Assembly: GCA_965200095.1 (NCBI GenBank)
Contig: OZ241350.1
Span: forward strand, 1,334,853-1,398,852
Reading direction: 5' to 3'
Length of the DNA: 64,000 nucleotides
DNA from: Alphaproteobacteria bacterium
GTDB taxonomy: Bacteria; Pseudomonadota; Alphaproteobacteria; UBA7887
In this document: positions 8,747-27,617 of the stretch, one piece after another
Layout of the letters: each line of letters begins with the position of its first letter
Position numbering within the stretch: the stretch's first letter is position 1
Notes under the pieces: model-generated
The model's input: the letters and a program-made list of their open reading frames with translations, nothing else
The model's database searches: none
What the model was told of the DNA's origin: nothing
Translations under genes and position numbers: made by a program

Positions 8747-8775
8747 TTGACGTCCGGCGCCGGCCTCGCTACAGT
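8747..8775 (+). promoter_or_regulatory. Sigma70-type promoter for NHLP precursor 1: -35 TTGACG, 17-nt spacer, -10 TACAGT
   Basis: TTGACG at 8747-8752 and TACAGT at 8770-8775. The downstream 5' UTR carries the hairpin GGAGAGGAAGCCTCTCC (8787-8803) and an SD GGGAGGA at 8819-8825. Confidence 0.6.
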
Positions 8776-8832: not shown

Positions 8833-9156
8833 ATGAGCGAGTCTGCGCTCCGCGCGATATCGGACGCCTGGCATGGGGATGCGGACTTCCGCGCCGCGGT
8901 GGAAGAGAACGCGAAAGCGGCGCTGGCGTCGAAAGGGCTGGAAATCCACGGGTCGACCGAAGTGAGCGTGGTCGTGGACACCGAAGACACGGCGTACTTC
9001 GTGTTCCCGCCGGACCCGAACGAGACTCTGTCCGACATTACGCTCGACGGCGTCTCGGGCGGGACCTCCTCCTGTTGGCAGCACTTCCAGCAGATGCAGC
9101 AGTTGATGAATGAACCCTGCTGGTTTCCCGGAACCGGGCCGACGGATCGGGGTTGA
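8833..9156 (+). CDS. NHLP (nitrile-hydratase-like leader peptide) family RiPP precursor 1; core TSSCWQHFQQMQQLMNEPCWFPGTGPTDRG
   Basis: Leader 'MSESALRAISDAWHGDADFRAAVEENAKAALASKGLEIHGSTEVSVVVDTEDTAYFVFPPDPNETLSDITLDGVSGG' has the NHLP blocks (AWxD..F..., VxVVxxT...y.V.PP.P, LSD..LD.VSGG) and ends in a GG cleavage motif. 107 aa. The ORF-track N-extension (8668) is rejected in favour of the ATG with an SD. Confidence 0.85.
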   Translation: MSESALRAISDAWHGDADFRAAVEENAKAALASKGLEIHGSTEVSVVVDTEDTAYFVFPPDPNETLSDITLDGVSGGTSSCWQHFQQMQQLMNEPCWFPGTGPTDRG

Positions 9157-9380
9157 TGTCGGCGGTCGAGGACACGGGGACACGGGGCGGCGCGCCGTAG
9201 CGTCCGCGGCCCCGGCGAACGGTTCGGTCTTGCCGCGACGCTGCGGGCTCCCTGCGGTCGTTCCCCGGAGCGCCGGCGGACGGCCCGCTCCCGGGGGGCC
9301 GTGTCCGTCGTCGCCATGGGAAGCGCCGGATGCGAACGCTCCGGCTTGCCGGCGGCCCCGCGCCGCGCTATTGTCGCCGC

Positions 9381-9635
9381 ATGACCGTCGCCGATATCCC
9401 GGCCGGTTTCGATACGCTCGCCGCGACCCGCGATCTCGAGGCGGCCGGCGTCGAACGCCGCGCCGGCCTGGCCACGAAGACCGATCTGGACAACCTCGAA
9501 GCGCGGGTGAACACACGCTTCGCGGAACTCGAAGCGCGGATGTTCAAGACCGCCATCTCCATCGTGCTGGCGCAAACCGCGTTGACCGTCGGCTTGATCT
9601 TCGGGTTGCTCAAGCCGTTCGGAGTCGCGCCATGA
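9381..9635 (+). CDS. DUF1640-like tail-anchored coiled-coil protein, paralog A (84 aa, one 11-residue repeat)
   Basis: 'MTVADIPAGFDTLAATRDLEAAG...LATKTDLDNLEARVNTRFAELEARM' plus a C-terminal TM 'ISIVLAQTALTVGLIFGLL'. Fits the 'FDTL..a..L.aAG...LATKaDL..LE' DUF1640 pattern. Putative leaderless promoter (TTGCCG..17..TATTGT) ends about 6 nt before the ATG. Confidence 0.6.
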   Translation: MTVADIPAGFDTLAATRDLEAAGVERRAGLATKTDLDNLEARVNTRFAELEARMFKTAISIVLAQTALTVGLIFGLLKPFGVAP

Positions 9636-9955
9636 ACACGGCGACGTTCGACGCTCATGCGGCCGTCGAGGCGATCGCCGACACCGTGCGCGTCGCCGTG
9701 TCCGAAGGCGTCGCCACGAAGACGGACATCGCCGCCCTTGACGCGAATCGCCGCACTCAAGGCGGACCTCTACCGCGCCTTGTGGATACGGGGCGCCGGC
9801 GTCGTCGCCCGCGCCGGGCTCGACGCCCCGGGGGCCGCGCGCCGTCGGGAGGGCGGGGGTGCGGCGGCGAATTTCACCGGCCCGCCCCCGATCGGGGCAA
9901 TCGCGTTCGCCCCGGCTTGCAGGCGGCCCCGCGCCGCGCTATCGTCGCCGCATGA
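9632..9955 (+). pseudogene. Frameshifted/deleted remnant of a second small DUF1640-like gene (ancestral form ends ...ALKADLYRALRIQGAGLVTVMVGIEFFG)
   Basis: ATG overlaps the paralog A stop (ATGA). Relative to the intact 3' copy at 11144-11282 there is a 2-nt deletion (gacgcgaaGAtcgcc -> gacgcgaatcgcc) and a ~45-nt deletion removing the IEFFG* C-terminus. Confidence 0.4.
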
Positions 9956-10266
9956 CCGTCGCCGACATCCCGGCCGGCTTCGATACGCTCGCCGCAACCC
10001 GCGACCTTGAGGCGGCCGATATCGAACGCCGCCATGCCGAAGCCGTTGTTGCGGTCGTGCGCGCAAGCCGCGCCGGCCTGGCCACGAAGGCCGACCTCGA
10101 CAACCTCGAAGCGCGGGTGAACGGACGCTTCGCGGAACTCGAAGGGCGGATGAACACGCGCTTCGCAGAACTCGAAGCGCGGATGCTCAAGGCCGCCATC
10201 TCCATCGTGCTGGCGCAAACCGCGTTGACCTTCGGGTTGCTCAAATTGCTCGGAGTCGCGCCATGA
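9952..10266 (+). CDS. DUF1640-like tail-anchored coiled-coil protein, paralog B (104 aa, two 11-residue repeats)
   Basis: Same N-terminus and upstream 40 nt as paralogs A and C. Repeats 'EARVNGRFAEL EGRMNTRFAEL' then a TM. Confidence 0.6.
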   Translation: MTVADIPAGFDTLAATRDLEAADIERRHAEAVVAVVRASRAGLATKADLDNLEARVNGRFAELEGRMNTRFAELEARMLKAAISIVLAQTALTFGLLKLLGVAP

Positions 10267-10324: not shown

Positions 10325-11140
10325 GCGAAGGAGCGTGTGAAGAAATTGGATGCCTCTCACAAATAACGGTGGAGACGCCGACAATACTTCGTCATTCCCG
10401 CGAAAGAGCGTGTGAAGAAATCGAACAGCGTTACAAGTACTCGTCATTCCCGCGAAAGCGGGAATCTCTTTGCGGCGTTTCCGTAAGAAAAACCGGGCCG
10501 ACATTGCGGGCGGGCGCCTCCGGATTCCCGCTTTCGCGGGAATGACGAAGTATTATTCGATGAGTATTGTCTTTTACGGCGCCGATACTTCGGAGAACCG
10601 GCCGTCACAATGAGAGCCGCCCGATTTCTTCACACGCTCGAAAGCGGGAATCTATCGCGGCGTTTCCGCAAGGAAAACCGGGTCGGTATAGCGGACGGTC
10701 ACCCCCGGATTCCCGCTTTCGAGTGTGTGAAGAAATCGAACAGCGTTACAGGTACTTGTCATTCCCGCGAAAGCGGGAATCTCTTTGCGGCGTTTCCGTA
10801 AGAAAAACCGGGCCGACATTGCGGACGACCGCCTCCGGATTCCCGCTTTCGCGGGAATGACGAAGTATTATTCGAATGACGAAGTATTATTCGGTGGATA
10901 TTGTCTTTTACGGCGCCGATACCTCGGCGATCCGGCCGTCACGATGACAGCCGCCCGGTTTCTTCACACGCTCGAAAGCGGGAATCCGGGGGCGGTCGTC
11001 CACAATATCGGCGCGGTTATTCTTACGGAAACGCCGTAATGACGAAGTATTATTCGATGGGTATTGTCTTTTACAATGCCGATACCTCGGCGATCCGTCC
11101 GTCACGATGACAGCCGCCCGGTTTCTTCACACGCTCGAAG
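10325..11140. repeat. Array of REP-like palindromic units (core ATTCCCGCGAAAGCGGGAAT flanked by GACGAAGTA / TACTTCGTC) with spacer modules
   Basis: Many copies of 'tcgtcattcccgcgaaagcgggaatc' and its inverse 'ggattcccgctttcgcgggaatgacga' occur at irregular spacing. The ORFs predicted inside are translations of the repeats. Confidence 0.75.
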
Positions 11141-11403
11141 GCGGGCCTTGCCGCCCTGCGCGCCGACATCGCCGCCCTTGACGCGAAGATCGCCGCACTC
11201 AAGGCCGACCTCTACCGCGCCTTGCGGATACAGGGCGCCGGTCTCGTCACCGTCATGGTGGGGATCGAGTTCTTCGGATAGCCCGGCGTCGCAGCCCGCG
11301 CCGGGCTCGACGCCCCGGGGGCCGCGCGCCGTCGGGAGGACGGGGGCGCGGCGGCGAATTTCACGAACCCGCCGCTGACCGGGACAATCGCGTTCGCCAC
11401 GGC

Positions 11404-12803
11404 TGTCGAGAACAATCGGAATTGACCGGTTTAGGTACCAAACGAGTTGACCGCTTCGGTTTGGCCCGTGTTCCGGCTTCCGAGCCGGCGGCCGCCGGCT
11501 CGGAAGCCGGAACACGGGCTGGCCGCGTCGAAGCGGGTTACGCGGCTTCCTCCCTCTCGCCTTCGATGAGCCTTCCTTCCCTGTCGTAATCCGCCAGCCG
11601 GCGCGGGCCGGCGAAGACCGCCAGACCGCCATCGGGATACTCGTGCACCCGGACCCGGCTCTTCACATAGTGGCGCCGATGCATGTCCGGCGGGATCGAA
11701 AGCGTCAGACGCTTGTAGCGCACCGTGTTGTCGTTCCCCACAACCCGGTCCTCCTGCACGCACAAGATGTCCGCAAGCGCCCCCGCGCCCGCCCACGGCA
11801 CGAACGCCGAACCCTCGCCTTCCGCCGGAACCGCAAACCGCGCGTTGTGCGAAGGCACAAACGCATCCCGCAGAAAGCGGTTCGCCGACACCATATCCTC
11901 GACCCCGGCAAGGCGCAGTTCCTGAGGCAAACGCTGTTGCAGCGTCCCGAACATGCGCTCCGACCGGCCCCGCGCTTGCGGCGTGTAGGCCGCGATCAAA
12001 TCGATGCCCAGATGCGCAAGCGCCCGACCGACCTGCGTCGGCTTCTCCTTGTCCACCTTCCCCCCGGCCTCCGGCGTGCGCCAGTAGTGGCTCCCGCGAT
12101 CCGCATAGAGCGAGCAGAACAGGCCATGCGCCTCAATCACCTCGCGCAAAGCCGAAAAACTGCTCATCGTCCCCTCCTCGGACACGAAAAACGCCGAGTA
12201 AATCTCGCTCGTCGCATCGTCCATCGTCACAATCAGGTCCCACCAACGCCCCGAAACCCACTCATGCCGCGACCCATCCCGGTGCAGCATCATCCCGGGC
12301 AACGCACGACGCGCGCGCTTGCGACGATGCGCCCCGCGACGCGGGGCCGCGCGAACCCGGCCATGCGCCTGCAGCGTCAGACGAACCCAGTTGTAACTCC
12401 GACGCACGCCGTGCTCCGACACCAGCTTCTCGTGGAAGTGCTTCGACGTGAAATCCCAGTAGCGCGTGTCGAACAAATCAAGCACACGCGCAACCTCGTC
12501 AACCGCAGCGCGACGCGACGACACACGACCGAGACGGCGGTCGTAAAGCCCCTCCGCTCCCTCCGCCTCATACCGGTCACGCCAGCGCCGGAACGTCCGC
12601 TCGCTGATGCCCAGAACCTCCGCAGCCTCCAGCTGGCTCAACGCGCCGCCGCGCGTTCGTCCGTAAACCTCCTCAAACCTCATAAGGCGTAGTCCCCGAT
12701 CCTGCTCCGTCCGACCCATCCCCCAGCCCTCCACAGAACAAAAGGGGCATGATCCGGACAGAACGCCTGGTACCTACACCGGACAAATCACATGTTAGCG
12801 ACA
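11404..12803 (-). mobile_element. IS481-family-like insertion sequence, copy 1 (1400 bp), flanked by a 6-bp direct repeat CACGGC
   Basis: Imperfect terminal IRs cTGTCGagAACA ... TGTTagCGACA start with TGT. Target duplications CACGGC at 11398-11403 and 12804-12809. Carries a 398-aa HTH + rve (DDE) transposase. Confidence 0.7.
11538..12734 (-). CDS. DDE transposase (HTH + integrase-core, IS481-like)
   Basis: N-terminal HTH 'LSQLEAAEVLGISERTFRRWRDRYEAEGAEGL'. 398 aa, identical to the copy at 13522..14718. Confidence 0.7.
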   Translation of the reverse strand: MEGWGMGRTEQDRGLRLMRFEEVYGRTRGGALSQLEAAEVLGISERTFRRWRDRYEAEGAEGLYDRRLGRVSSRRAAVDEVARVLDLFDTRYWDFTSKHFHEKLVSEHGVRRSYNWVRLTLQAHGRVRAAPRRGAHRRKRARRALPGMMLHRDGSRHEWVSGRWWDLIVTMDDATSEIYSAFFVSEEGTMSSFSALREVIEAHGLFCSLYADRGSHYWRTPEAGGKVDKEKPTQVGRALAHLGIDLIAAYTPQARGRSERMFGTLQQRLPQELRLAGVEDMVSANRFLRDAFVPSHNARFAVPAEGEGSAFVPWAGAGALADILCVQEDRVVGNDNTVRYKRLTLSIPPDMHRRHYVKSRVRVHEYPDGGLAVFAGPRRLADYDREGRLIEGEREEAA

Positions 12804-12844
12804 CACGGCTTGCAGGCGGCCCCGCGCCGGGTTATCGTCGCCGC

Positions 12845-13303
12845 ATGACTGTCGCCGACATCCCGGCCGGCTTCGATACGCTCGCCGCAACCCGCGATCT
12901 CGAAGCGGCCGGTATCGAACGCCGCCACGCCGAAGCCGTCGTCGCGGTCGTGCGCGCCAGCCGCGCCGGCCTGGCCACGAAGGCCGATCTCGACAACCTC
13001 GAAGCGCGGATGGGCGGACGTTTCGCAGAACTCCAGGCGCAGATGGACGGGCGCTTCGCAGAACTCCAGGCGCAGATGGACGGGCGCCTCGCGGAATTCG
13101 AAGCGCGGGTGAACGGGCGTTTCGCGGAATCCGATGAGCGGGTGAACGGGCGCTTCGCGGAATCCGATGAGCGGGTGAACGGGCGCTTCGCGGAACTCGA
13201 AGCGCGGATGCTCAAGGTCGCCATCTCCATCGTGCTGGCGCAGACCGCGTTGACCGTCGGCCTGACCTTCGGGTTGCTCAAGCTGTTCGGAGGCGCGCCA
13301 TGA
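12845..13303 (+). CDS. DUF1640-like tail-anchored coiled-coil protein, paralog C (152 aa, six 11-residue repeats)
   Basis: '...EARMGGRFAEL QAQMDGRFAEL QAQMDGRLAEF EARVNGRFAES DERVNGRFAES DERVNGRFAEL' then a TM. Lies between the two direct IS copies. Confidence 0.6.
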   Translation: MTVADIPAGFDTLAATRDLEAAGIERRHAEAVVAVVRASRAGLATKADLDNLEARMGGRFAELQAQMDGRFAELQAQMDGRLAEFEARVNGRFAESDERVNGRFAESDERVNGRFAELEARMLKVAISIVLAQTALTVGLTFGLLKLFGGAP

Positions 13304-13387
13304 ACACGGCGACCTTCGACACTCATGCGGCCCTCAGGGCGCTCACCCGCGCCGGCTGAAACCGCGGGTTCGCCTCCGGCAAGCCTC

Positions 13388-14787
13388 TGTCGAGAACAAT
13401 CGGAATTGACCGGTTTAGGTACCAAACGAGTTGACCGCTTCGGTTTGGCCCGTGTTCCGGCTTCCGAGCCGGCGGCCGCCGGCTCGGAAGCCGGAACACG
13501 GGCTGGCCGCGTCGAAGCGGGTTACGCGGCTTCCTCCCTCTCGCCTTCGATGAGCCTTCCTTCCCTGTCGTAATCCGCCAGCCGGCGCGGGCCGGCGAAG
13601 ACCGCCAGACCGCCATCGGGATACTCGTGCACCCGGACCCGGCTCTTCACATAGTGGCGCCGATGCATGTCCGGCGGGATCGAAAGCGTCAGACGCTTGT
13701 AGCGCACCGTGTTGTCGTTCCCCACAACCCGGTCCTCCTGCACGCACAAGATGTCCGCAAGCGCCCCCGCGCCCGCCCACGGCACGAACGCCGAACCCTC
13801 GCCTTCCGCCGGAACCGCAAACCGCGCGTTGTGCGAAGGCACAAACGCATCCCGCAGAAAGCGGTTCGCCGACACCATATCCTCGACCCCGGCAAGGCGC
13901 AGTTCCTGAGGCAAACGCTGTTGCAGCGTCCCGAACATGCGCTCCGACCGGCCCCGCGCTTGCGGCGTGTAGGCCGCGATCAAATCGATGCCCAGATGCG
14001 CAAGCGCCCGACCGACCTGCGTCGGCTTCTCCTTGTCCACCTTCCCCCCGGCCTCCGGCGTGCGCCAGTAGTGGCTCCCGCGATCCGCATAGAGCGAGCA
14101 GAACAGGCCATGCGCCTCAATCACCTCGCGCAAAGCCGAAAAACTGCTCATCGTCCCCTCCTCGGACACGAAAAACGCCGAGTAAATCTCGCTCGTCGCA
14201 TCGTCCATCGTCACAATCAGGTCCCACCAACGCCCCGAAACCCACTCATGCCGCGACCCATCCCGGTGCAGCATCATCCCGGGCAACGCACGACGCGCGC
14301 GCTTGCGACGATGCGCCCCGCGACGCGGGGCCGCGCGAACCCGGCCATGCGCCTGCAGCGTCAGACGAACCCAGTTGTAACTCCGACCCACGCCGTGCTC
14401 CGACACCAGCTTCTCGTGGAAGTGCTTCGACGTGAAATCCCAGTAGCGCGTGTCGAACAAATCAAGCACACGCGCAACCTCGTCAACCGCAGCGCGACGC
14501 GACGACACACGACCGAGACGGCGGTCGTAAAGCCCCTCCGCTCCCTCCGCCTCATACCGGTCACGCCAGCGCCGGAACGTCCGCTCGCTGATGCCCAGAA
14601 CCTCCGCAGCCTCCAGCTGGCTCAACGCGCCGCCGCGCGTTCGTCCGTAAACCTCCTCAAACCTCATAAGGCGTAGTCCCCGATCCTGCTCCGTCCGACC
14701 CATCCCCCAGCCCTCCACAGAACAAAAGGGGCATGATCCGGACAGAACGCCTGGTACCTACACCGGACAAATCACATGTTAGCGACA
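13388..14787 (-). mobile_element. IS481-family-like insertion sequence, copy 2 (100% identical to copy 1), flanked by a-GCCTC / c-GCCTC
   Basis: The 1984-bp offset from copy 1 is conserved throughout, with identical ends. 5/6-bp direct repeat; the surrounding target shows a GCCTCCGGCAA tandem duplication. Confidence 0.7.
13522..14718 (-). CDS. DDE transposase (IS481-like), copy 2
   Basis: Differs at one residue (G vs R) from the ORF at 11538..12734. Confidence 0.7.
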   Translation of the reverse strand: MEGWGMGRTEQDRGLRLMRFEEVYGRTRGGALSQLEAAEVLGISERTFRRWRDRYEAEGAEGLYDRRLGRVSSRRAAVDEVARVLDLFDTRYWDFTSKHFHEKLVSEHGVGRSYNWVRLTLQAHGRVRAAPRRGAHRRKRARRALPGMMLHRDGSRHEWVSGRWWDLIVTMDDATSEIYSAFFVSEEGTMSSFSALREVIEAHGLFCSLYADRGSHYWRTPEAGGKVDKEKPTQVGRALAHLGIDLIAAYTPQARGRSERMFGTLQQRLPQELRLAGVEDMVSANRFLRDAFVPSHNARFAVPAEGEGSAFVPWAGAGALADILCVQEDRVVGNDNTVRYKRLTLSIPPDMHRRHYVKSRVRVHEYPDGGLAVFAGPRRLADYDREGRLIEGEREEAA

Positions 14788-14804
14788 CGCCTCCGGCAAG
14801 CCTC

Positions 14805-14833
14805 TTGACTTTCGGCGCCCGCTTTGCTATAAG
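14805..14833 (+). promoter_or_regulatory. Sigma70-type promoter for NHLP precursor 2: -35 TTGACT, 17-nt spacer, -10 TATAAG
   Basis: TTGACT at 14805-14810 and TATAAG at 14828-14833, 18 bp beyond the IS copy 2 end. The 5' UTR has the hairpin GGGGATGCAGCATCCCC (14846-14862) and an SD GAGGAGG (14876-14882). Confidence 0.6.
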
Positions 14834-14890: not shown

Positions 14891-15214
14891 ATGAACGAGT
14901 CCCCGCTCCACGCGATATCGAACATCTACCATGCGGATGCCGGCTTCCGCGCCGAGGTGGAAGAGGACGCGAAGTCCGCGCTGGCGACGAAGGGGCTGGA
15001 AATCCACGGACCGGCCGAGGTGAGCGTGGCCGTGGACACCGAAGACACGGTGCATGTGGTGTTCCCGCCGGACCCGAACATGGCGCTCCCCGACGGCGCG
15101 CTGGACGCCGTCTCGGGCGGCTGGGGGGGGTACCCCAACGGCTACACCTACAACGGCAACTACTACTCGACCCGCCAGCTCTCCGCCGGCGGCATGTACG
15201 ACTCTTCGCGCTAA
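14891..15214 (+). CDS. NHLP-family RiPP precursor 2; core WGGYPNGYTYNGNYYSTRQLSAGGMYDSSR
   Basis: Leader 'MNESPLHAISNIYHADAGFRAEVEEDAKSALATKGLEIHGPAEVSVAVDTEDTVHVVFPPDPNMALPDGALDAVSGG' is about 60% identical to the precursor 1 leader. The core is completely different. 107 aa. Confidence 0.85.
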   Translation: MNESPLHAISNIYHADAGFRAEVEEDAKSALATKGLEIHGPAEVSVAVDTEDTVHVVFPPDPNMALPDGALDAVSGGWGGYPNGYTYNGNYYSTRQLSAGGMYDSSR

Positions 15215-15233
15215 CCGACTGCGCGAGAGATGA

Positions 15234-15266
15234 GGCGGCGCGCCCGGGGCGCGCCGCCTTTTCGTT
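15234..15266 (+). terminator. Rho-independent terminator after precursor 2 (GGCGGCGCGCC-cgg-GGCGCGCCGCC + TTTTCGTT)
   Basis: Perfect 11-bp GC stem followed by a T-run, 20 nt after the stop codon. Confidence 0.7.
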
Positions 15267-15423
15267 GTCTGCGGCGCCGCGCGCCGTTTCCTTGCGGGCC
15301 TGTCGCGGTGTTCGCCGCTCCCGATCCGCGAATGGCGGGACGCGCGCCGGAGACCGTTCCCCGCGCCGCTCTCCCGCGATGCTAACCGGCAGCGCGCGCG
15401 ACCGCGGCGTCGTCGAGCGTCCG

Positions 15424-17661
15424 ATGCTTGCGCCGCATCTCCGGTTTTCCCCCGTCGGCGACGGCGCGGCGCTGCTGGTTTCCGAAAGCTTCAACCGGCT
15501 CCTCGAGGGGCGGCTCTGGCCCGCCCTGTTGCCGCTGCTCGACGGGACGCGCTCGCGGGCGGAGATCGCTGCGGCGCTCGCCGAGAGCCATCCGGCGCTC
15601 GAGACGCAAACGGCGCTGGTCGCGCTGGCGACGCAAGGCGTGGTCGTTTCCGCCGAATTCTCGATGGACCGCGCCGCGGCCGCGTTCTGGTCGCGCCTCG
15701 GCGCATCGCCGCGTCTCGCCGAAGAACGGCTGGGCGCGGCGCGGGTTTCGGTCTCCGGCCCCGAACCGCACGCCGAAAATTTCGCCCGGCGGCTGGAAGC
15801 GGCGGGGCTGACGGCAACCCGCGCGACTCCGACCCTGGCGGCCGTCGTCGCGCCGGATTTTCTCGACGACTCCCTGGCGGAGGACAACCGGCGGCGGGTC
15901 GCCGGCGGGCCGCCCTGGCTCGCGATCGCGCCGGACGGCGCGCCGCCGCTGTTCGGCCCCGTTTTTCGTCCCGACGGAGACGGGCCGTGCCTGGCGTGCC
16001 TGACGCAGCGGCTTTCCGCCAACCGCGAAGCCGAGGAGTTCCTGCGCGCCGCCGGCGACGGCGGAGACCCGGTCCGCCCCCGCGCGCCCGGCGGTTTCGT
16101 CGACGCCGCGCTGGGCCTTGCGGCGACCGCGGTCGCGGTCTGGACCGTGCTGGGGGAACGATCGCCGCTGCACCGGTGCGCGGTCTCGCTGGACGCGGCC
16201 GGGCTGGAGAGCCGCCGCCACCCGGTGACGCGGCGCCCGCAATGCCCCGTTTGCGGCGACCCGGCTCTCAGGCGCCCCGGCCGCGCGTCGGCGCCGGTGC
16301 GGCTACGGCCGAGCCCCGCTCCGGCGCGCGGCGACGGCGGACCGCGCGCCGTGCCGCCGGAGGAAACCTTGCGCCGGTGGGGCCATCTCGCCGACCCGGT
16401 AAGCGGCGTCGCGGCGGCGTTCGGACCGCTCGCGCCGGAGGGCGACCCGTGGCTGCACGTCTTCCGATCGTCCGGCAATTCGGCGCTGCGCACGCACGAT
16501 CTGCGCCAGCGGCTCCACAGTCTGCGCGCCTGGTGCCTCGGCAAGGGCGCGACGGCGGCGCAGGCGCAGGCGAGCGCCCTGTGCGAGGCGGTGGAGCGCC
16601 GCTGCGGCGCGTTTCACGGCGACGAGGTCCGCCGCCGCGCGCGCTTCGTCGATTTCCCCGCCGGCGACGCGCTGGCGCCGAACGACGCGCAGCTGTTCAG
16701 CGACCGGCAGCTGGCGGACGCGGCCGCGCTCAACGCGTCCGAACCGCATTTCAACCGCATCCCGCCGCGTTTCGACCCGAAGGCCGAAATGGACTGGTCG
16801 CCGGTGTGGTCGCTGACGGCCGAACGCCGCCGCTGGCTGCCGACGCAGCTGCTCTGGTTCGCCGCGCCGGCGGAGGACGGAGTTGTCCACTGCACGGCGG
16901 ACTCCAACGGATGCGCGGCCGGCAACACACTGGAAGAAGCGGTGCTGCAAGGGTTTCTGGAGCTCGTGGAGCGCGACGCCTTCGCGTGCTGGTGGTATAA
17001 TTGCGTCGCGCTGCCGGGGGCGGACCCGGGCGGGTTCGGCGACCCGTGGCTCAGCCGGGCGCCGGCGCATTATCGCGCGCGCGGTCGCGACATGTGGCTG
17101 CTGGACGCAACGCACGATCTCGGCGTCCCGGTCTTCGTCGCGGTCTCGCGACGCACCGACAAGGAGGCGGAGGACATCATCTACGCGGCGGGGGCGCATC
17201 TCGACCCGCGCGTGGCGGCGCGGCGCGCGGTGTGCGAGCTGAACCAGTATCTCGCCGTAACCGGCGGCGCGAAGGCCGACGGCTCCGGCTATCTGAGCGA
17301 CGACCCGGAGTCGCTGCGACGGTGGCGGACGATGCGGCTGGCGGACCGGCCGTGGCTCGCCCCCGCGCCGGGAGCGCCGCGCCACGCCGCCGCCGCCGGG
17401 CCGGTCGCGGACGCGACGGACACGCTGCGCGCCCTCGAACATTGCCGCGAGGCGGTCGAGTCCCGCGGAATGGAGGTTCTCGTGCTCGACCAGACGCGGC
17501 CCGACATCGGGCTGCCGGTGGCGCGAACGATCGTTCCGGGGTTGCGCCATTTCTGGCCGCGCTTCGCGCCGGGGCGCCTCTACGACGTCCCGACAGCGAT
17601 GGGCTGGCGAGACGCTCCGGCGCGCGAAGAGGAGCTGAACCCGGTTCCGGTGTCGATCTGA
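15424..17661 (+). CDS. Fused E1-like/YcaO azoline-forming cyclodehydratase (PatD/TruD-like TOMM heterocyclase)
   Basis: N-terminus 'MLAPHLRFSPVG...LLPLLDGTRSRAEIAAAL' aligns with the PatD start (MQPTALQIKPHFH...ILPLLNGQYTLEQIVEKL). YcaO ATP/Mg motifs 'SALCEAVERR' and 'GFLELVERDAFACWWYN'. The C-terminus 'LNPVPVSI' has a PxPxP-type motif. Start chosen at ATG 15424; the TTG at 15265 lies inside the terminator. Confidence 0.8.
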   Translation: MLAPHLRFSPVGDGAALLVSESFNRLLEGRLWPALLPLLDGTRSRAEIAAALAESHPALETQTALVALATQGVVVSAEFSMDRAAAAFWSRLGASPRLAEERLGAARVSVSGPEPHAENFARRLEAAGLTATRATPTLAAVVAPDFLDDSLAEDNRRRVAGGPPWLAIAPDGAPPLFGPVFRPDGDGPCLACLTQRLSANREAEEFLRAAGDGGDPVRPRAPGGFVDAALGLAATAVAVWTVLGERSPLHRCAVSLDAAGLESRRHPVTRRPQCPVCGDPALRRPGRASAPVRLRPSPAPARGDGGPRAVPPEETLRRWGHLADPVSGVAAAFGPLAPEGDPWLHVFRSSGNSALRTHDLRQRLHSLRAWCLGKGATAAQAQASALCEAVERRCGAFHGDEVRRRARFVDFPAGDALAPNDAQLFSDRQLADAAALNASEPHFNRIPPRFDPKAEMDWSPVWSLTAERRRWLPTQLLWFAAPAEDGVVHCTADSNGCAAGNTLEEAVLQGFLELVERDAFACWWYNCVALPGADPGGFGDPWLSRAPAHYRARGRDMWLLDATHDLGVPVFVAVSRRTDKEAEDIIYAAGAHLDPRVAARRAVCELNQYLAVTGGAKADGSGYLSDDPESLRRWRTMRLADRPWLAPAPGAPRHAAAAGPVADATDTLRALEHCREAVESRGMEVLVLDQTRPDIGLPVARTIVPGLRHFWPRFAPGRLYDVPTAMGWRDAPAREEELNPVPVSI

Positions 17662-17761
17662 CGGCGGAACCGGCTCATCCCGGGGCGCGCGACGGGCAAG
17701 CCGGGTTGACGCTCCGGCGGCGAGCCGGTATCGTGGCGGCGGCTTTGCCGGGGAGAGCGAG

Positions 17762-18391
17762 ATGCCGAAGATCAACCCGTTCGTCGGTCTGTTCGTGGCC
17801 ATCGCGGCGCTGAACGCGAGCATGTTCGTCTGGCTGCGCGCCGACATCGCCGAAGTCCGCGAGGAAATCGCCGCCGTCCGCGGGGATGTCGCCGGCAATG
17901 GCGAGCGTCTGGCGCGCATCGAGACCGTGCAGGCCGAACATGGCGAGCGTCTGGCGCGCATCGAGACCGTGCAGACCGAGCATGGCGAGCGCCTGACGCG
18001 CATCGAGACCGTGCAGGCCGAGCATGGCGAGCGCCTGACGCGCCTCGAGGCCGGGCAGGCGGAACTGCGCGACCGCATGGCCGAGGTCGAAATCGGGCAG
18101 GCGGAGATGCGCGCCGATATCGCCGAGCTCGGCGAGCGCGCGATTCGCGTCGAAACCGGGCAGGCGGAATTGCGCGACCGCATGACCGGGGTCGAAGCCG
18201 GACTTGCGGGGTTGCGCGCCGATATCGCCGAAGTCGGCGAGCGTGTGGTTCGCGTCGAAGCCGGGCAAACCATGACCGGCGAGCGCATGGCGCGCATCGA
18301 AGGCACGGTCGCCGGCGCGCTCGGGCGCCCGTTTCCGGGCGCGGATCGCGTCGCACGGGCGCCCGAGGCGGGCGCAAACGCGGCGAACTGA
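17762..18391 (+). CDS. N-terminally membrane-anchored tandem-repeat coiled-coil protein (4 x 14-aa 'GERLARIETVQAEH' + 21-aa repeats)
   Basis: TM 'PFVGLFVAIAALNASMFVWL' followed by near-perfect tandem repeats. Upstream are TTGACG..17..TATCGT and an SD GGGGAGAG. Confidence 0.55.
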   Translation: MPKINPFVGLFVAIAALNASMFVWLRADIAEVREEIAAVRGDVAGNGERLARIETVQAEHGERLARIETVQTEHGERLTRIETVQAEHGERLTRLEAGQAELRDRMAEVEIGQAEMRADIAELGERAIRVETGQAELRDRMTGVEAGLAGLRADIAEVGERVVRVEAGQTMTGERMARIEGTVAGALGRPFPGADRVARAPEAGANAAN

Positions 18392-18494
18392 CCCTTCGCG
18401 ATACGGGACGGAAACCCGGACGAACCGACCGCCGGCGCCCGCGGCCAGATCCATGGCCGGCAGCCTGCCTGCGGCCATGGCGGCCCGCTCCGCG

Positions 18495-19793
18495 TTTCGT
18501 ATGCGAGACCTTTGCATAACCCGTTTCGCCTGCGGCAGGATCGCGTTCCCGATGCTTTACGACGTTTTCGAACCTGCCGTCGGAGCATGACAGTGAGTGA
18601 CGGAATTACGGGAATCCGCCCTCTGCATCGATAATTCCCGCTTTCGAGCATATGAAGAGACCGGATGTTTCTCACTATGGCGGTCGGAGCGCCGAAGGGT
18701 TCGGCGCGGCAAAAGACAACAATTCTCTAATAATACTCGTCATTCCCGCGAAAGAGTGTGTGAAGAAATCGAAAGGCCGCACTACTCTTCGTCATTCCCG
18801 CGAAAGCGGGAATCTGTCGCGGCGTTTCCGTAATAAAAACGGGCCGATATAGCGGACGGCCGCCTCCGGATTCCCGCTTTCGAGCATGTGAAGAAACCGG
18901 GCGTCTCCGATCGTGACAGCCGGATCGCCGAGGCACCGGCATTGTAAAAGACAATACCCATCGAATAATACTTCGTCATTCCCGAGAAAGAGCGTGTGAA
19001 GAAATTGAGCGCCTCTCACTATGGCGGCTGGACAACTCAAGAACCGCCATAGTGAAAGGCGGTAACCCCCAGATAATACCTCGTCATTCCCGCGAAAGCG
19101 GGAATCCGGAGGCGGACGTCCGCTATATCGGCCCGCTTTATTATGGAAACGTCGCAACGGATTCCCGCTTTCGCGGGAATGACGAGTATTTGTAAGGCCT
19201 TTCAATTTCCTCACACGCTCTTTCGCGGGAATGACGAAGTACCATTCGGTGGTTATCGTCTTTTACAAATGCCGTTACTTCGGCGATCCGGCTGTCACGA
19301 TTCGGAAACGCCCGACTTCTTCACACGCGTGAAAGCGGGAATCTGTCGCGGCGTTTCCGTAATAAAAACGGGCCGGTATAGTGGACGGTCGCCTCCGGAT
19401 TCTCGCTTTCGAGCGTGCGAAGAAATCGAGAGCCGCTACTATTCTTCGTCATTCCCGCGAAAGCGGGAATCTGCTTGCGGCGTTTCCGTAAGAAAAACCG
19501 CGCCGATATTGCGGACGGCCGCCTCCGGATTCCCGCTTTCGCGGGAATGACGAGTATTTGTAAAGCCGTCCGATTTCTTCACATGCTCTCGCGGGAATGA
19601 CGAGTGTTTGTAAGGCTGTTCAATTTCCTCGCACGCTCTTTCGCGGAACGGATATGTCCGGACAACGACGAGCCGGATCGAATCGAGGCGCCCGGTCATC
19701 CCGTCGACGCCTCGCGACATCGCCGGAAGTCGAGCCGAACAGGCAACCGCTCGCGACCGGCCCCCGAAAAAAATCCGGACCTCGGCAGAGGTC
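18495..19793. mobile_element. MITE-like non-autonomous element (about 1.3 kb): 5' module GAGACCTTTGCATAAC..., internal REP-unit array, 3' module ...GGCAGAGGTC
   Basis: Same 5' (~125 nt) and 3' (~180 nt) modules as the element at 26897..27617. The terminal inverted repeats here are degenerate. Confidence 0.55.
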
Positions 19794-19885
19794 GCATATG
19801 CCTCGAACGAGGACGCGGCGTAGCGCGCGGACGGCCCGGGGGCTACGCTGCAATGCGACAGCTTTCCTGGCGGATCGGGGGCGAC

Positions 19886-20776
19886 ATGGGCGACACGGGC
19901 GTTCTGGGGCTGGGTTACGTCGGCATCGACGCGCGGGACCCGGCGGCATGGGAGCCGTTCGCGACCGGCTTTCTCGGAATGGAGCGGGCGGAAGCCGGCG
20001 GCGGCGCGACGGCGTTCCGGGTGGACGATGCCGGGCGGCGGCTCATCGTCATGCCCGCCGCGCGCGACGGCGGGGCCTTCTATGGCTGGGAGGTCGCGGA
20101 CGCCGCGGCGCTCGACGCGCGGGCGGCGGCGCTCGAGGGCCGGGGAGTCGCGGTCGCCGCGGCGACCGCCGCCGAATGCGCGTTGCGCGGCGTAGCCGGC
20201 ATGGCGCATTGCGTCGACCCCGGCGGTCACCGGGCGGAACTGTTCCATGGCCTCGACCCGGCGGGCGAGGCGTTCTCTCCGGGGCGGCCGATGGCCGGTT
20301 TCCGCACCGGGGCGCTCGGCCTCGGCCACATCCTCCTTCAGGCCGCGGACGCCCGGAAATGCGCCGCGTTCTATCGCGAGGCGCTGGGCTTCCGGCTCAG
20401 CGACTGGCGCGACGAACCGCACGCCGCGCGCTTCCTGCATTGCAACCCGCGGCATCATTCGCTGGCGCTGTTCGGCCGCGGCGAGGCGCGCCTGCACCAC
20501 GTGATGGTGGAGCTGAACGCGCTCGACGATGTGGGCGCCGCCTACGACATGGCGCTGGCCGGGAACGGCCGCGTCGCCCTGACGCTGGGCCGGCACCCCA
20601 ACGACCGCATGGTCTCGTTCTACGTCAACACGCCGTCGGGCTTCCTGCTCGAATACGGCTGGGGCGGGCGGACCGTCGACGACGCGACCTGGGTAGTGGA
20701 GGAGACTCCGGTGCGCAGCCTGTGGGGCCACCGGCGCCGCGAGGCGGCGTTTGCCGCCGGCCCCGGTAGCGTCTAG
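19886..20776 (+). CDS. Type I extradiol (catechol 2,3-/biphenyl-diol-type) dioxygenase, two VOC domains
   Basis: 'LGLGYVGIDARD', 'LGLGHILLQAADARK', 'HHSLAL', 'HHVMVELNALDDV'. An alternative start at 19853 is possible. Confidence 0.75.
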   Translation: MGDTGVLGLGYVGIDARDPAAWEPFATGFLGMERAEAGGGATAFRVDDAGRRLIVMPAARDGGAFYGWEVADAAALDARAAALEGRGVAVAAATAAECALRGVAGMAHCVDPGGHRAELFHGLDPAGEAFSPGRPMAGFRTGALGLGHILLQAADARKCAAFYREALGFRLSDWRDEPHAARFLHCNPRHHSLALFGRGEARLHHVMVELNALDDVGAAYDMALAGNGRVALTLGRHPNDRMVSFYVNTPSGFLLEYGWGGRTVDDATWVVEETPVRSLWGHRRREAAFAAGPGSV

Positions 20777-20840
20777 ATTGCCGCGCGGGGCCGTGCGCGC
20801 CCTCACCCATCCTGTTTCCATGGCCTTCGGGAGGCACTCG

Positions 20841-21374
20841 ATGATTCGCAGATCCCCCTTGCCGGCGCCGGTCGCCGGCGCCCTCGCCGGCGCGCTGGCG
20901 CTGACCGCCGTCTCCGCCCATGCTGAGATCGACTATGGCGACACCATCGCCATCCATGAATCGGTTGTCATCGAGGGCAGCGCGCAAGCCATCTGGGCGA
21001 AGTACGGCGGTTATTGCGACCTCACCGCATGGGTCGGCCCGGTGCTTACCTGCGAATATACCGAAGGCGAGGGCCAGCTCGGCACCGTGCGCAAACTGCT
21101 CCTGGCCGGCGATATGGGGGAAGTGGTCGAACTCATGAGCGTCCAGGGGCCGACCCTCTACACCTACGAGATGACCGAGGGCTTTCTCGCGCACGCGAAC
21201 TACCGCTCCACCGTGTGGGCGGTCCCCGGCGTCACCGCCGATACGGCGGAAGTGCACTGGCGGACCACCATTCTCGCTTCGGCGTTCGAGGACGGCGGCG
21301 TCGGCATCGCGCAGGCGCTGGAAGGCGTCTACGCCTCGTCTCTCGCCGCGCTGAAGGCGATGGTGGAATTCTAG
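20841..21374 (+). CDS. Secreted SRPBCC (Bet v1/polyketide-cyclase-like) protein
   Basis: SD GGGAGG 7 nt upstream. Signal 'MIRRSPLPAPVAGALAGALALTAVSAHA'. About 150-aa START/Bet v1-like fold length. Confidence 0.55.
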   Translation: MIRRSPLPAPVAGALAGALALTAVSAHAEIDYGDTIAIHESVVIEGSAQAIWAKYGGYCDLTAWVGPVLTCEYTEGEGQLGTVRKLLLAGDMGEVVELMSVQGPTLYTYEMTEGFLAHANYRSTVWAVPGVTADTAEVHWRTTILASAFEDGGVGIAQALEGVYASSLAALKAMVEF

Positions 21375-21408
21375 GCCGCGGCGTCGCCCGGCTTCCGGGG
21401 GGCGGCGG

Positions 21409-22446
21409 ATGTCCGGCGCGACGGCGGACGATGCGCTGGCGCGTCTGCTGGCGCGCGCGCCGGAGCCGCCGCCCTTCCCCGAAGACAATATCTTCCCCAT
21501 CGAATGGCGTGTCGAAACCCCGAAACTGGCGGAGATTTACGAGCAGTCGCGCGACCCCGGCTGGTCGCCGGCGACCCTTCCCTGGGACACGCTGAAACCG
21601 CAGGACTTCACGCCCGACCAGCGCTGCGCCATCGCCTACTGGTTCGCGCTGCTCGGCGTGTTCGACAGTTCGGGGCCGGCGGTGTTCGCGCGCGCGATGA
21701 TCCGCACCTACGAAACGCGCCGGGAAGACCCGGTGCGCAAGTGCTTCTTCTCCATCGTCCGGGACGAAGTGAATCATGAGGAGGTCTGCCAACGGGTCAT
21801 CGGCGTCCTGACCCCCGGCGGCCCCTTCGGCCACCGGCCCGAAACGCCGCTCGGCCGCCTCGCGCGCAACAACGTCCTCTGGTATCACCACAACGGCGCG
21901 CGCTACTGGGAGGGGTTCAAAAGCGCCGTCCCGAAATACCCCCTCGCGATCCTGTTCACCGCGTTCCTCATGGGGGAGCTTGCCGCGGCGACGCTGTTTC
22001 ACGGCATGCACAAGCGCACCTCGGTTCCCGCGCTGGCCGAGGCGTTCCGCTTCATCGGCAAGGACGAAGCGCGGCATCTCGGCATCTGCATGGCCGTCCT
22101 CCGCGACCTGCTGCCCACGCTTTCCGCGGACGGGAAGGCGACGGTCACGAAGCAGATCCGCGCCGGCTATGTGTTCCTTTCGGGCATTCTCTACGAACCT
22201 CCCGGCGAATTCTGGGACCTGCCGGAGACGTTCCTCGAGGCGCACCGGCGCATCGAGGCCGTGGCGGCGGACGCCGGTCTCGGAATTCTGGGCCGGGAGG
22301 AGCGCCGCGAGAACTGGCGCGCCGCGGTGCTGCGCATGAAGGGGATACTGGAAGGCTACGACATCGCCTTCCCCGCCATTCCGGAGATCGGGATCGACGG
22401 CGAGACCGTGGCGTTCGACCCCGCCGACATCGTCCCGGTTTTCTGA
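21409..22446 (+). CDS. Ferritin-like diiron-carboxylate protein (putative oxygenase)
   Basis: Two ExxH motifs ('RDEVNHEE', 'GKDEARHLG') spaced about 100 aa apart. Confidence 0.5.
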   Translation: MSGATADDALARLLARAPEPPPFPEDNIFPIEWRVETPKLAEIYEQSRDPGWSPATLPWDTLKPQDFTPDQRCAIAYWFALLGVFDSSGPAVFARAMIRTYETRREDPVRKCFFSIVRDEVNHEEVCQRVIGVLTPGGPFGHRPETPLGRLARNNVLWYHHNGARYWEGFKSAVPKYPLAILFTAFLMGELAAATLFHGMHKRTSVPALAEAFRFIGKDEARHLGICMAVLRDLLPTLSADGKATVTKQIRAGYVFLSGILYEPPGEFWDLPETFLEAHRRIEAVAADAGLGILGREERRENWRAAVLRMKGILEGYDIAFPAIPEIGIDGETVAFDPADIVPVF

Positions 22447-23159: not shown

Positions 23160-23422
23160 CGGCGCCGGCCATCAAGCGATCCGGTTCACCGAAAACCGGC
23201 GCTCCGACCGTACAAATACTCGTCATTCCCGCGAAAGCGGGAATCCGGAGGCGGTCGTCCGCTATATTGGCCCGTTTTTTTATTACGGAACCCCCGCAAC
23301 GGATTCCCGCTTTCGCGGGAATGACGAAGAGTAGTAGGGCTTTTCAATTTCTTCACACACTCTATTCGCGGAACGAATATGTCCGAACAAACGACAAGCC
23401 GGCTCGAATCGAGGCGCCCCGG
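23160..23422. repeat. Truncated copy of the REP-array/MITE 3' module, abutting the aspS stop
   Basis: REP units plus 'cgcggaacgaatatgtccgaacaaacgacaagccggctcgaatcgaggcgccc', homologous to 19640-19700 and 27450-27520. Confidence 0.6.
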
Positions 23423-26899: not shown

Positions 26900-27617
26900 G
26901 ACCTCTGCATAACTCGTTTCGTCTATGGACAGGATCGCGTTCCCGGCGCTTTTGCGACGTTTCCGAACCCGCCGTCCGGGGTATGACAATGCGTGACGGA
27001 ATCGCGAACATCCGCCCCCTGCCCCGGTAATTCTCTCGTAAAGAGCGTGTGAAAAAATTGAAAAGCCCCGCTACTCTTCGTCATTCCCGCGAAAGAGCGT
27101 GTGAAAAAAGCCGAGAGACGCTACTACTCTTCGTCATTCCCGCGAAAGCGGGAATCTGCTTGCGGCGTTTCCGTAAGAAAAACCGCGCCGGTATTGCGGA
27201 CGTCCGCCTCCGGATTCCCGCTTTCGCGGGAATGACGAAGTACTATTCGATGGGTGTTGTCATTTACAATTCCGATACTTCGGCGAACCGGCCGTCACAA
27301 TGAGAGCCGACCAATTTTTCACACGCTCGAAAGCGAGAATCCGGAGGCGCTCGCCCACAATGTCGGCCCGGTTTTTCTTACGGAAACGCCGCAACAGATT
27401 CCCGCTTTCGCGGGAATGACGAGTATTTGTAAATCTGTCCGATTTCTTCACATGCTCTTCGCGGAACGAACATGTCCGCACAATGACAATTCGGCTCGAA
27501 TCGGGGCGCCCGGTCATCCCGTCGACGCCTCGCGACGCCGCCGGAAGTCGGGCCGAACAGGCAACCGCCGAGCCGCGCGACCGGACCCCGAAAAATCCGG
27601 GCCTTATGCAGAGGTCC
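26897..27617. mobile_element. MITE-like non-autonomous element (about 720 bp): TIR TGAGACCTCTGCATAA / TTATGCAGAGGTCC, flanked by a 5-bp direct repeat CGGAT, with internal REP units
   Basis: 13/15-bp perfect inverted termini. Flanks are ...cacGGAT|tgagacc and ggtcc|CGGATcgat. The interior shares the 5' and 3' modules with 18495..19793. Confidence 0.65.

Follow-up and report, generated by a model that had tools for sequence, protein, structure and literature searches.

The question raised by this locus is whether a heterocyclase that resembles the cyanobactin enzymes PatD and TruD, and that is encoded near precursors with NHLP-type leaders, represents a natural example of a leader and an enzyme that have been re-paired. 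The locus was analyzed within a window of 64 kb, which is the whole stretch of DNA examined, and was compared in a survey of 83 sources, comprising 82 distinct loci of relatives and the window itself. The domain make-up of the enzyme, its homology and clade, and the adjacency and conservation of the genes were computed directly.

The fused heterocyclase and its start codon

The heterocyclase gene was located at positions 15379 to 17661 on the forward strand and encodes 760 amino acids when read from the ATG codon at 15379, whereas the original prediction placed the start at 15424. A domain search with the open reading frame identified a YcaO domain (PF02624) at amino acids 373 to 708 with an E-value of 9e-92 and a score of 308 bits (cutoff 25.7), and the enzyme also matched the SagD-type family TIGR03604 (255.5 bits, cutoff 219.25) and, at amino acids 164 to 329, the fused E1-like/leader-binding family TIGR03882 (117.9 bits, cutoff 36.9). 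In phmmer searches of the PDB, full-length matches were obtained to LynD (4v1t; E = 3.7e-138, residues 2 to 743 of the query against 9 to 773 of the chain), TruD (4bs9; E = 6.6e-136), and MusD (7u58; E = 1e-122), and the best matches after these were archaeal YcaO proteins at merely 1e-12. The predicted presence of a PatD/TruD-like single-chain heterocyclase was thus confirmed both by the three family models and by the full-length alignment to LynD, TruD, and MusD at about 37% identity. Judged from its sequence, the enzyme is an intact fused heterocyclase in 3 parts, consisting of a leader-binding (RRE), an E1-like, and a YcaO domain. Long antisense open reading frames over the gene, such as the one at 16303 to 18675 on the reverse strand, were rejected as high-GC artefacts, since codon-position GC and homology favored the forward frame.

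The putative leader-binding domain, an RRE-like winged helix at 15424 to 15680 (+), was assigned from sequence alone through a gap-free alignment to residues 9 to approximately 95 of LynD and TruD. Residues 1 to 90, numbered from 15424, aligned to the N-terminal domain of these enzymes with zero gaps, which bears out the claim that the N-terminus aligns with the start of PatD, for which LynD and TruD served as stand-ins. The E1-like domain (15913 to 16410, +; TIGR03882) contained a CxxC...CxxC zinc site formed by C189, C192, C274, and C277, all of which were invariant columns in the enzyme alignment A1 and correspond to the same cysteines in LynD and TruD. In the ATP-dependent, amide-activating YcaO domain (16540 to 17649, +; PF02624, TIGR03604), the motifs SALCEAVER, DSNGCAAGNTLEEA, and QTRPDIGLPV...PG were conserved, as were the ATP-site motifs SxxxExxER and DSNG..GNTxEEA. 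The enzyme is therefore similar to PatD, TruD, LynD, and MusD in its 3-part architecture, zinc site, and YcaO motifs, and is predicted to catalyze the ATP-dependent cyclodehydration of Cys, Ser, or Thr. The leader-binding domain was the most diverged part, with 26% identity to the cyanobactin enzymes as compared to 35% in the E1-like and 40% in the YcaO domain.

The segment between the 2 candidate start codons (15379 to 15423, +) encodes an N-terminal extension with the clade-wide motif D-R-G-V-V-E-R-P. The motif, in the form A-D-R-G-x-V-E-x-P, was retained in 83 to 90 of 90 relatives, and only 10 of the 90 had a methionine at the position that corresponds to 15424. Because the motif upstream of 15424 is conserved and the methionine at 15424 is seldom a methionine in the relatives, the true start of the enzyme is most likely the ATG at 15379. 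The cyanobactin heterocyclases do not share this additional D-R-G-x-V-E-x-P motif; the LynD, TruD, and MusD chains lack room for it, since their aligned region begins at residue 9. In the comparison of 90 sequences the motif was specific to the NHLP-linked clade, which makes it a candidate for a role in leader recognition, and the extension might form part of the NHLP docking surface.

Two NHLP precursors, their cores, and the surrounding elements

The prediction that leaders of the NHLP type, in the plural, accompany the enzyme was confirmed by the identification of 2 precursor genes of 107 codons each. The first (8833 to 9156, +) was identified by tblastn, by the Pfam model NHase_alpha (E = 1e-5; 25.5 bits, slightly under the cutoff of 27.2), and by TIGR03793 as a member of the precursor alignment A2, and was 97% identical to the copy at the syntenic locus L003. 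Its leader corresponds to amino acids 1 to 77 and ends in L-S-D-I-T-L-D-G-V-S-G-G, and its core (nucleotides 9064 to 9153, +) reads TSSCWQHFQQMQQLMNEPCWFPGTGPTDRG. The second precursor (14891 to 15214, +) is preceded by a strong Shine-Dalgarno sequence, AGGAGGA, and has a leader of amino acids 1 to 77 with L66-x4-L71 and G76-G77, followed by the core WGGYPNGYTYNGNYYSTRQLSAGGMYDSSR (nucleotides 15122 to 15211, +). It matched TIGR03793 with an E-value of 5.4e-8 and a score of 32.6 bits, which is under the cutoff of 50.9, and matched the structure of the MprE7 NHLP leader (8tb1) with an E-value of 4.2e-5 over residues 14 to 78, a match that takes in both the L(X)4L and the GG segment. Across the precursor family, each of the 21 members matched TIGR03793 at E-values of 1e-3 or lower, with a best value of 1.4e-12. 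Each precursor in the window has a Gly-Gly cleavage site in addition to the hydrophobic-x4-Leu motif, and D68, L71, G76, and G77 were invariant in the A2 alignment, in which the cores diverge. An AlphaFold2 model of precursor 2, based on the alignment of 21 sequences, placed helices at residues 5 to 15, 17 to 25, and 27 to 33, with low confidence (mean pLDDT 46.8).

The core of precursor 2 was retained in orthologs adjoining enzymes of 65% to 99% identity, with the consensus WGGYPNGxTYNGxYY[ST]xxQLSAGG[MR]YDS[SCT]R across 12 orthologs. In these, the penultimate column was limited to S, C, and T, and core position 16 to S and T. The core is under constraint, and the restricted columns fit the pattern expected of heterocyclization sites. 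The 2 cores in the window are scarce in Cys, Ser, and Thr, and that of precursor 2 contains no Cys.

A candidate sigma-70-like promoter (TTGACG-17-TACAGT; 8747 to 8775, +), identified by consensus match only, was located approximately 58 nucleotides upstream of precursor 1; the scan returned 3 such sites against 0.7 expected in shuffled sequences. Upstream of precursor 2, a promoter-like sequence read by eye (TTGACT-17-TATAAG; 14805 to 14833, +) was missed by the scan because its −10 hexamer ends in G, but may serve as the promoter of this gene. Between precursor 2 and the enzyme gene, a hairpin resembling an intrinsic terminator (15232 to 15260, +), with a stem of 13 bp including 11 G-C pairs, could possibly act as an attenuator that sets the ratio of precursor to enzyme; terminator-like sites were not enriched in the region (4 against 8.3 expected).

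Two copies of an ISNCY-family insertion sequence, both on the reverse strand, were located between the precursors, at 11403 to 12804 (transposase 11538 to 12734) and at 13387 to 14788 (transposase 13522 to 14718). The second was assigned by NF033594 (E = 8e-107) and the first through its 99.93% identity to the second over the repeat of 1,402 bp, which is missing from the 98% to 99% identical locus L003. Copy 1 is a recent insertion between the precursors and lies outside the pathway. Copy 2 ends 103 nucleotides upstream of precursor 2 and takes the place of L003 positions 9166 to 9410. The 2 copies might disturb expression.

It could be argued from these elements that the locus is decaying or orphaned, with the enzyme and precursors stranded by insertion sequence activity and deprived of the oxidase, protease, and exporter needed for a product. 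Gene fragments of the DUF1640 type also lie between the precursors, and no pathway protease, exporter, or oxidase was found in the 64 kb by domain searches, in the Pfam lists of L003, or by inspection of the remaining open reading frames by eye. Furthermore, a second heterocyclase (P0041), which is probably from the same genome, fell with an oxidase-linked clade. However, all 3 open reading frames are intact and 97% to 99% identical to those at L003, which is free of the insertion sequences, and the same minimal gene set recurs, with a conserved core, at enzyme identities of 65% to 87%. We therefore consider decay an unlikely explanation. As separate observations, DUF1640/CCDC90-like genes were rejected as pathway components because they occurred in merely 6 of the 83 sources, and no halogenase family was present in the Pfam list of L003.

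Relationship to cyanobactin and NHLP-associated enzymes

The locus lies outside a cyanobactin context, as was originally stated, in that it has neither a PatE-type precursor, both precursors being of the NHLP type, nor a PatA/PatG-type protease. The only subtilase in the window, an S8 peptidase at 1439 to 2848 (−), was discarded as a PatA/PatG analog, since it gave no match to these proteins at E-values of 0.01 or lower and was missing from the gene lists of loci L001 and L083. The accompanying premise that fused E1-like and YcaO proteins are a hallmark of cyanobactin pathways was not upheld, since roughly every second thiazole/oxazole (TOMM) cluster, and not the cyanobactin clusters alone, has a fused C-D protein (PMC4603692).

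In a neighbor-joining tree, the 90 NHLP-associated enzymes together had LynD, TruD, and MusD as their sister clade. The window enzyme was placed outside this cyanobactin heterocyclase clade, with identities of 36% to 38% to these 3 proteins. By this tree, it is a member of a large and separate NHLP-associated clade and not a re-paired cyanobactin enzyme. Full-length homology to LynD and TruD, as well as the stronger divergence of the leader-binding domain, would be in line with the recent capture of a PatD-type enzyme by an NHLP precursor. Against this stand the sister position of the cyanobactin enzymes, within which the window enzyme is not nested; the identity of 37% to them as compared to 50% to 60% identity to hundreds of NHLP-linked enzymes across many phyla; and the fact that the pairing was described already in 2010, when NHLP precursors were defined through adjacency to a TIGR03882 fusion protein, a model that also recognizes PatD (PMC2887384). 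Such a capture is thus very improbable. In 2015, the cyanobactin D proteins were likewise reported to group with those of NHLP and Nif11 clusters, which lack PatA/G (PMC4603692). Of the re-pairing idea, what stood was that a homolog of PatD, TruD, and LynD occurs with NHLP leaders and has diverged most in its leader-binding domain; its novelty did not, and nor did the re-pairing reading itself once the enzyme was placed in the tree. A PatD-like fused heterocyclase with an NHLP leader is a well-known and widespread pathway type, to which this locus is an ordinary addition. As originally posed, the question is of little import, because the pairing has long been established and leader docking has already been studied experimentally.

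In 75 of the 83 surveyed sources, NHLP precursors lay no more than 10 kb from the enzyme. The relatives were mostly metagenome-assembled genomes, many of them from sponge-symbiont lineages, and included srp (LCCCW) clusters. Within the small sub-clade to which the window belongs, the precursors and the enzyme were the only genes in common, and the enzymes were 99% (L003), 87% (L085), 75% (L084), 67% (L001), and 65% (L083) identical to that of the window. The sub-clade is without an oxidase, and its cores are conserved, Cys-poor and Tyr/Gly-rich, and end in D-S-[S/C/T]-R; this is the sole, and only mildly, new aspect of the locus. Its sister clade consists of enzymes associated with Gly/Ser/Thr/Ala-rich cores. 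A ThcOx-type oxidase adjoined 10 of the 12 listed sister-clade loci, and was absent at the window, L001, and L003 loci.

A probable minimal azoline pathway

In our assessment, the locus probably encodes a minimal azoline pathway of the NHLP (proteusin) type, with one fused RRE/E1-like/YcaO cyclodehydratase and 2 cognate NHLP precursors. We infer the docking mode, the chemistry, the modification sites, and the removal of the leader as follows. The presumably structured leader would dock on the N-terminal leader-binding domain, with the hydrophobic-x4-Leu segment (L66-P-D-G-A-L71 in precursor 2) added as a strand to the β-sheet of this domain and the first leader helix packed against its helices. 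Experiments on MprC and MprE7 published in 2025 revealed binding of the L(X)4L strand to the β-sheet of the leader-binding domain and of the leader α1 helix to its helices (PMC12455567). The YcaO domain would then use ATP to activate the backbone amides beside Ser, Thr, or Cys residues of the core, yielding (methyl)oxazolines or thiazolines. In precursor 2, modification would most likely fall on the penultimate S106 and on S93, followed by S105 and S98, and in precursor 1 on C4 and C19 of the core. Azolines and not azoles are expected, since no azoline oxidase is encoded nearby. The leader would be cut after Gly-Gly by a protease or an exporter encoded elsewhere in the genome.

Several characterized systems resemble this arrangement. 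The methanotroph proteusin cyclodehydratase MprC, with the precursors MprE1-10 and the oxidase MprD, is likewise a fused YcaO enzyme that forms azolines, has a leader-binding domain, and acts on several NHLP precursors (PMC12455567, PMC10286304). The Mpr leaders carry L(X)4L and GG, and the window precursor aligns to the MprE7 leader structure 8tb1; however, that system has 10 precursors, 2 to 6 azoline sites, and an adjacent oxidase, whereas the window has 2 precursors, Cys-poor cores, and no oxidase. The SrpC/SrpE/SrpI system of marine-sponge microbiomes belongs to the same enzyme family, with approximately 50% to 52% identity in srp-type loci, and also has an NHLP leader; the thiazolines in this system are installed by SrpC on a precursor of the NHLP type (PMC10286304, PMC10858898). 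An oxidase was present in just 2 of 51 srp-type loci, similar to its absence from the window, but the srp cores are of the LCCCW type and the srp pathway includes the brominase SrpI (PMC10286304), whereas the window has unrelated cores of 30 amino acids and an enzyme from a different clade. NstD/NstC of nostatin A and the clusters with Gly/Ser/Thr/Ala-rich cores share the 3-part architecture and the NHLP leader; the enzymes linked to Gly/Ser/Thr/Ala-rich cores form the sister clade of the window sub-clade, at 55% to 60% identity. Unlike the window, these clusters have Cys/Ser/Thr-rich cores and an oxidase adjoining most loci, and an epimerase and a LanM-like enzyme are further products of the nostatin cluster (PMC11583998). 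As in the NHLP TOMM clusters of Haft et al. (2010), for example in Pelotomaculum thermopropionicum with 12 NHLPs and one CD fusion, a single fused cyclodehydratase in the window would serve several NHLP paralogs whose leaders are conserved and whose cores diverge (PMC2887384), although those clusters were linked to C39-peptidase ABC exporters, none of which is encoded in the window.

Several observations count against the azoline pathway. Cys, Ser, and Thr are scarce in the cores, whereas MprC is reported to favor Cys over Ser and Thr (PMC12455567); the TIGR03793 and Pfam scores of the precursors are below the cutoffs and the precursor model has a low pLDDT; and the window contains no protease, exporter, or oxidase and has insertion sequence copies between the precursors.

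A more tentative proposal, which we regard as possible but doubtful, is that the window sub-clade, with 6 enzymes that are 65% to 99% identical, represents an uncharacterized proteusin subfamily in which a lone heterocyclase acts on conserved, Cys-poor and Tyr/Trp/Gly-rich cores (WGGYPNG...SAGG[MR]YDS[SCT]R), so that its product would either bear Ser/Thr-derived oxazolines in the D-S-[S/C/T]-R module at the C-terminus or arise from a non-azoline YcaO reaction. As a compact system of enzyme and precursors with unusual conserved cores, the locus could be used to test for efficient oxazoline formation from Ser and Thr. We assign a low probability to the view that the locus as such is devoted to a non-azoline reaction on its Cys-poor, aromatic-rich cores, such as the formation of an amidine, a macrolactamidine, or another backbone modification. 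Heterocyclizable residues are few in many sub-clade cores, with only 1 to 2 Ser or Thr in several L001 cores, and an oxidase is absent, which would fit such a reaction. Yet the enzyme has the architecture and motifs typical of azoline formation, a TfuA-type partner was missing from the Pfam gene lists for the loci L001, L003, and L083, one core column is limited to S, C, or T, and no core is without any Ser, Thr, or Cys.

The fused heterocyclase gene and its start

At a G+C content of about 70%, long spurious ORFs abound in the window, and the plus-strand ORF ending at 17661 was singled out by codon-position G+C and homology. Translated from the ATG at 15424, the start chosen in the original prediction, it encodes a heterocyclase of 745 amino acids, which matched the YcaO family (PF02624, E = 9e-92), the SagD-type model TIGR03604 (255.5 bits, cutoff 219.25) and TIGR03882 (117.9 bits, cutoff 36.9), a model of the E1-like part that is found only in fused cyclodehydratases. 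Among PDB sequences, it aligned over its full length with LynD (3.7e-138), TruD (6.6e-136), and MusD (1e-122), all of them cyanobactin heterocyclases; the next matches were archaeal YcaO proteins at about 1e-12, and no further azoline-forming cyclodehydratases were found in this search at E ≤ 1e-3. The E1-like zinc site retained both of its CxxC pairs, the YcaO motifs were conserved as well, and residues 1 to 90 aligned without gaps to the leader-binding domain of LynD and TruD, as expected from the claimed match to the PatD-type start. Based on the domain matches, alignments, motifs, and gap-free N-terminus, the predicted PatD/TruD-like single-chain heterocyclase is real and intact, and belongs to an already known kind of enzyme.

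Sequence conservation places the true start most likely at the ATG at 15379, since the motif A-D-[RQ]-G-x-[VI]-E-x-P directly upstream of the Met at 15424 was conserved among relatives (D in 86, G in 83, and P in all of 90), whereas that Met was a Met in just 10 of the 90. The chains of the cyanobactin enzymes have no room for this clade-wide motif upstream of the aligned region.

Relationship to cyanobactin and NHLP-linked enzymes

More than 1,195 proteins matched the heterocyclase at E ≤ 1e-10, and 591 relatives were confirmed in a scan of species-representative genomes. The best 79 loci, with 49% to 60% identity to the window enzyme, came from Alpha- and Gammaproteobacteria, Acidobacteriota, Gemmatimonadota, Nitrospirota, and Actinomycetota, among other groups; many were metagenome-assembled genomes named for sponge-symbiont lineages. 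In a neighbor-joining tree of 93 sequences, LynD, TruD, and MusD were sister to all NHLP-linked enzymes. The proposed kinship to the cyanobactin enzymes stood, but in this tree they form a separate sister of the NHLP-linked clade. Identities of the leader-binding, E1-like, and YcaO domains were 26%, 35%, and 40% to the cyanobactin enzymes, versus 49% to 56%, 46% to 51%, and 56% to 60% to the NHLP-linked enzymes.

No PatE precursor, PatA/PatG protease, azoline oxidase, or C39 exporter was found in the 64-kb window, as judged from domain searches of the window, the Pfam list of L003 (a syntenic metagenome scaffold 98% to 99% identical to it), and inspection of the remaining ORFs by eye. A lone subtilase 6 kb upstream was considered as a PatA/PatG protease and rejected as a generic S8 enzyme.

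The original prediction took fused enzymes for a cyanobactin hallmark and the locus for an informative example of re-pairing of leader and enzyme, but prior literature contradicts the first and anticipates the second. Fused C-D proteins occur in roughly half of TOMM clusters according to Cox et al. (PMC4603692), in whose study the cyanobactin D proteins grouped with those of NHLP/Nif11 clusters, which are without PatA/G-like proteases, and TIGR03882 also recognizes both PatD and TriA (PMC2887384). Characterized enzymes of the same kind include SrpC (PMC10286304, PMC10858898), NstD (PMC11583998), and MprC, the last as cited in PMC10286304 and PMC12455567, and engagement of NHLP leaders by the leader-binding domain was studied by mutagenesis and modeling in 2025 (PMC12455567). 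The modest points that are left are the N-terminal motif and, in a minimal cluster lacking an oxidase, conserved cores that are poor in Cys.

For 75 of 83 sources (the window and 82 distinct relative loci), a leader HMM identified NHLP precursors within 10 kb of the enzyme. The cores were srp-type and LCCCW-like at 51 loci, and Gly/Ser/Thr/Ala-rich (nostatin-like) or FISCI-type at about 13; a ThcOx-type oxidase adjoined 10 of the 12 listed loci of the latter kinds. The window belonged to a third, small sub-clade with L003 (99% enzyme identity), L085 (87%), L084 (75%), L001 (67%), and L083 (65%), where the only genes in common were the enzyme and 2 to 9 NHLP precursors per locus. A second heterocyclase, P0041, was 58% identical and closest to the oxidase-linked clade, and probably points to another NHLP azol(in)e cluster within this genome.

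Two other types of loci were noted. Several srp-type loci (L061 8589-9911, L058 8592-9935, L071 8550-9890, and about 25 others) encoded a protein of about 450 amino acids, in which an N-terminus weakly matching the NHLP leader HMM (...THVVLPPR) was fused to an enzyme-sized conserved domain, prenyltransferase- or terpene-cyclase-repeat-like by eye. The entire 22-kb locus L002/L006 of a metagenome-assembled Vicinamibacterales genome (OZ251506.1) was an NHLP supercluster with at least 9 precursors (several carried frameshifts or were duplicates), 2 fused heterocyclases, 2 LanM-like (DUF4135) enzymes, 1 radical-SAM enzyme, 1 ThcOx oxidase, and 2 AAA-ATPase_like/PDDEXK_9 genes.

Precursors and proposed mechanism

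Precursors 1 (8833-9156) and 2 (14891-15214), both of 107 amino acids, were encoded upstream of the enzyme on the same strand, each with a leader of 77 amino acids ending in hydrophobic-x4-Leu...Gly-Gly. Precursor 2 matched the solved NHLP leader MprE7 (8tb1, E = 4e-5) and, at a score under the curated cutoff, TIGR03793 (E = 5e-8). Precursor 1 matched Pfam NHase_alpha (E = 1e-5), and TIGR03793 was matched by every one of the 21 precursor family members, which bears out the pairing with NHLP-type leaders. A hairpin with a 13-bp stem and a T-rich tail was located downstream of precursor 2, ahead of the enzyme gene.

Among orthologs, the precursor 2 core followed the pattern WGGYPNGxTYNGxYY[ST]xxQLSAGG[MR]YDS[SCT]R, and the shorter paralogs retained the module SAGGRYD[ST][SC]R. 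Only S, C, or T occurred in the penultimate column, and only S or T at core position 16; these columns are probable modification sites.

By homology with LynD/PatE and MprC/MprE7 (PMC12455567), the leader segment L66-x4-L71 would most likely extend the sheet of the leader-binding domain by one strand, with the first leader helix packing onto the helices of that domain, and the YcaO domain would phosphorylate backbone amides and cyclize Ser/Thr/Cys to azolines. Azolines rather than azoles would be expected, since no oxidase is nearby, and leader removal after Gly-Gly would need a gene outside the window.

Gene neighborhood

The region between the precursors contained small DUF1640-like coiled-coil genes, REP-like repeats, and 2 ISNCY copies of 1402 bp each (99.93% identical to one another), which left both precursor ORFs and the enzyme ORF intact. 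Both copies were absent from the 98% to 99% identical L003 and are therefore recent insertions. The DUF1640/CCDC90-like genes (9381-9632, 9952-10263, and 12845-13300, plus strand) encode small paralogous coiled coils with a C-terminal membrane anchor, and broken copies were found at 9632-9809, 11168-11278, and 13300-13356. They are unlikely to be part of the pathway, since only 6 of the 83 sources carried any copy. Two further such genes were located inside the Vicinamibacterales supercluster.

Immediately downstream of the heterocyclase, a gene at 17762-18391 (plus strand), near a promoter-like site at 17706-17734, encodes a 209-amino-acid protein that has tandem repeats, each roughly 14 residues long (GERLxRIETVQAEH), besides an N-terminal membrane helix. 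This protein was kept in L003 but in neither L001 nor L083. Some 2 kb downstream of the heterocyclase gene, a small operon (19604-22446, plus strand), syntenic in L003 and absent from the other sub-clade loci, encodes an extradiol dioxygenase (BphC/HsaC-like) together with an SRPBCC/polyketide-cyclase-like protein and a weakly AurF/rubrerythrin-like di-iron protein. Clusters of intergenic repeats of about 150 bp (10385-11150, 18737-19600, 23211-23371, and 27076-27616), 80% to 90% identical and in both orientations, give rise to spurious ORFs in which peptides like FPRKRES and IPAFAGMT appear. At the start of the window, a partial AAA_21/AAA_15 ATPase gene (1-741, plus strand, E = 4e-23) was followed by a DUF4276 gene (754-1404, plus strand, E = 2e-13), a pair that could be a defense or toxin-antitoxin-like module.
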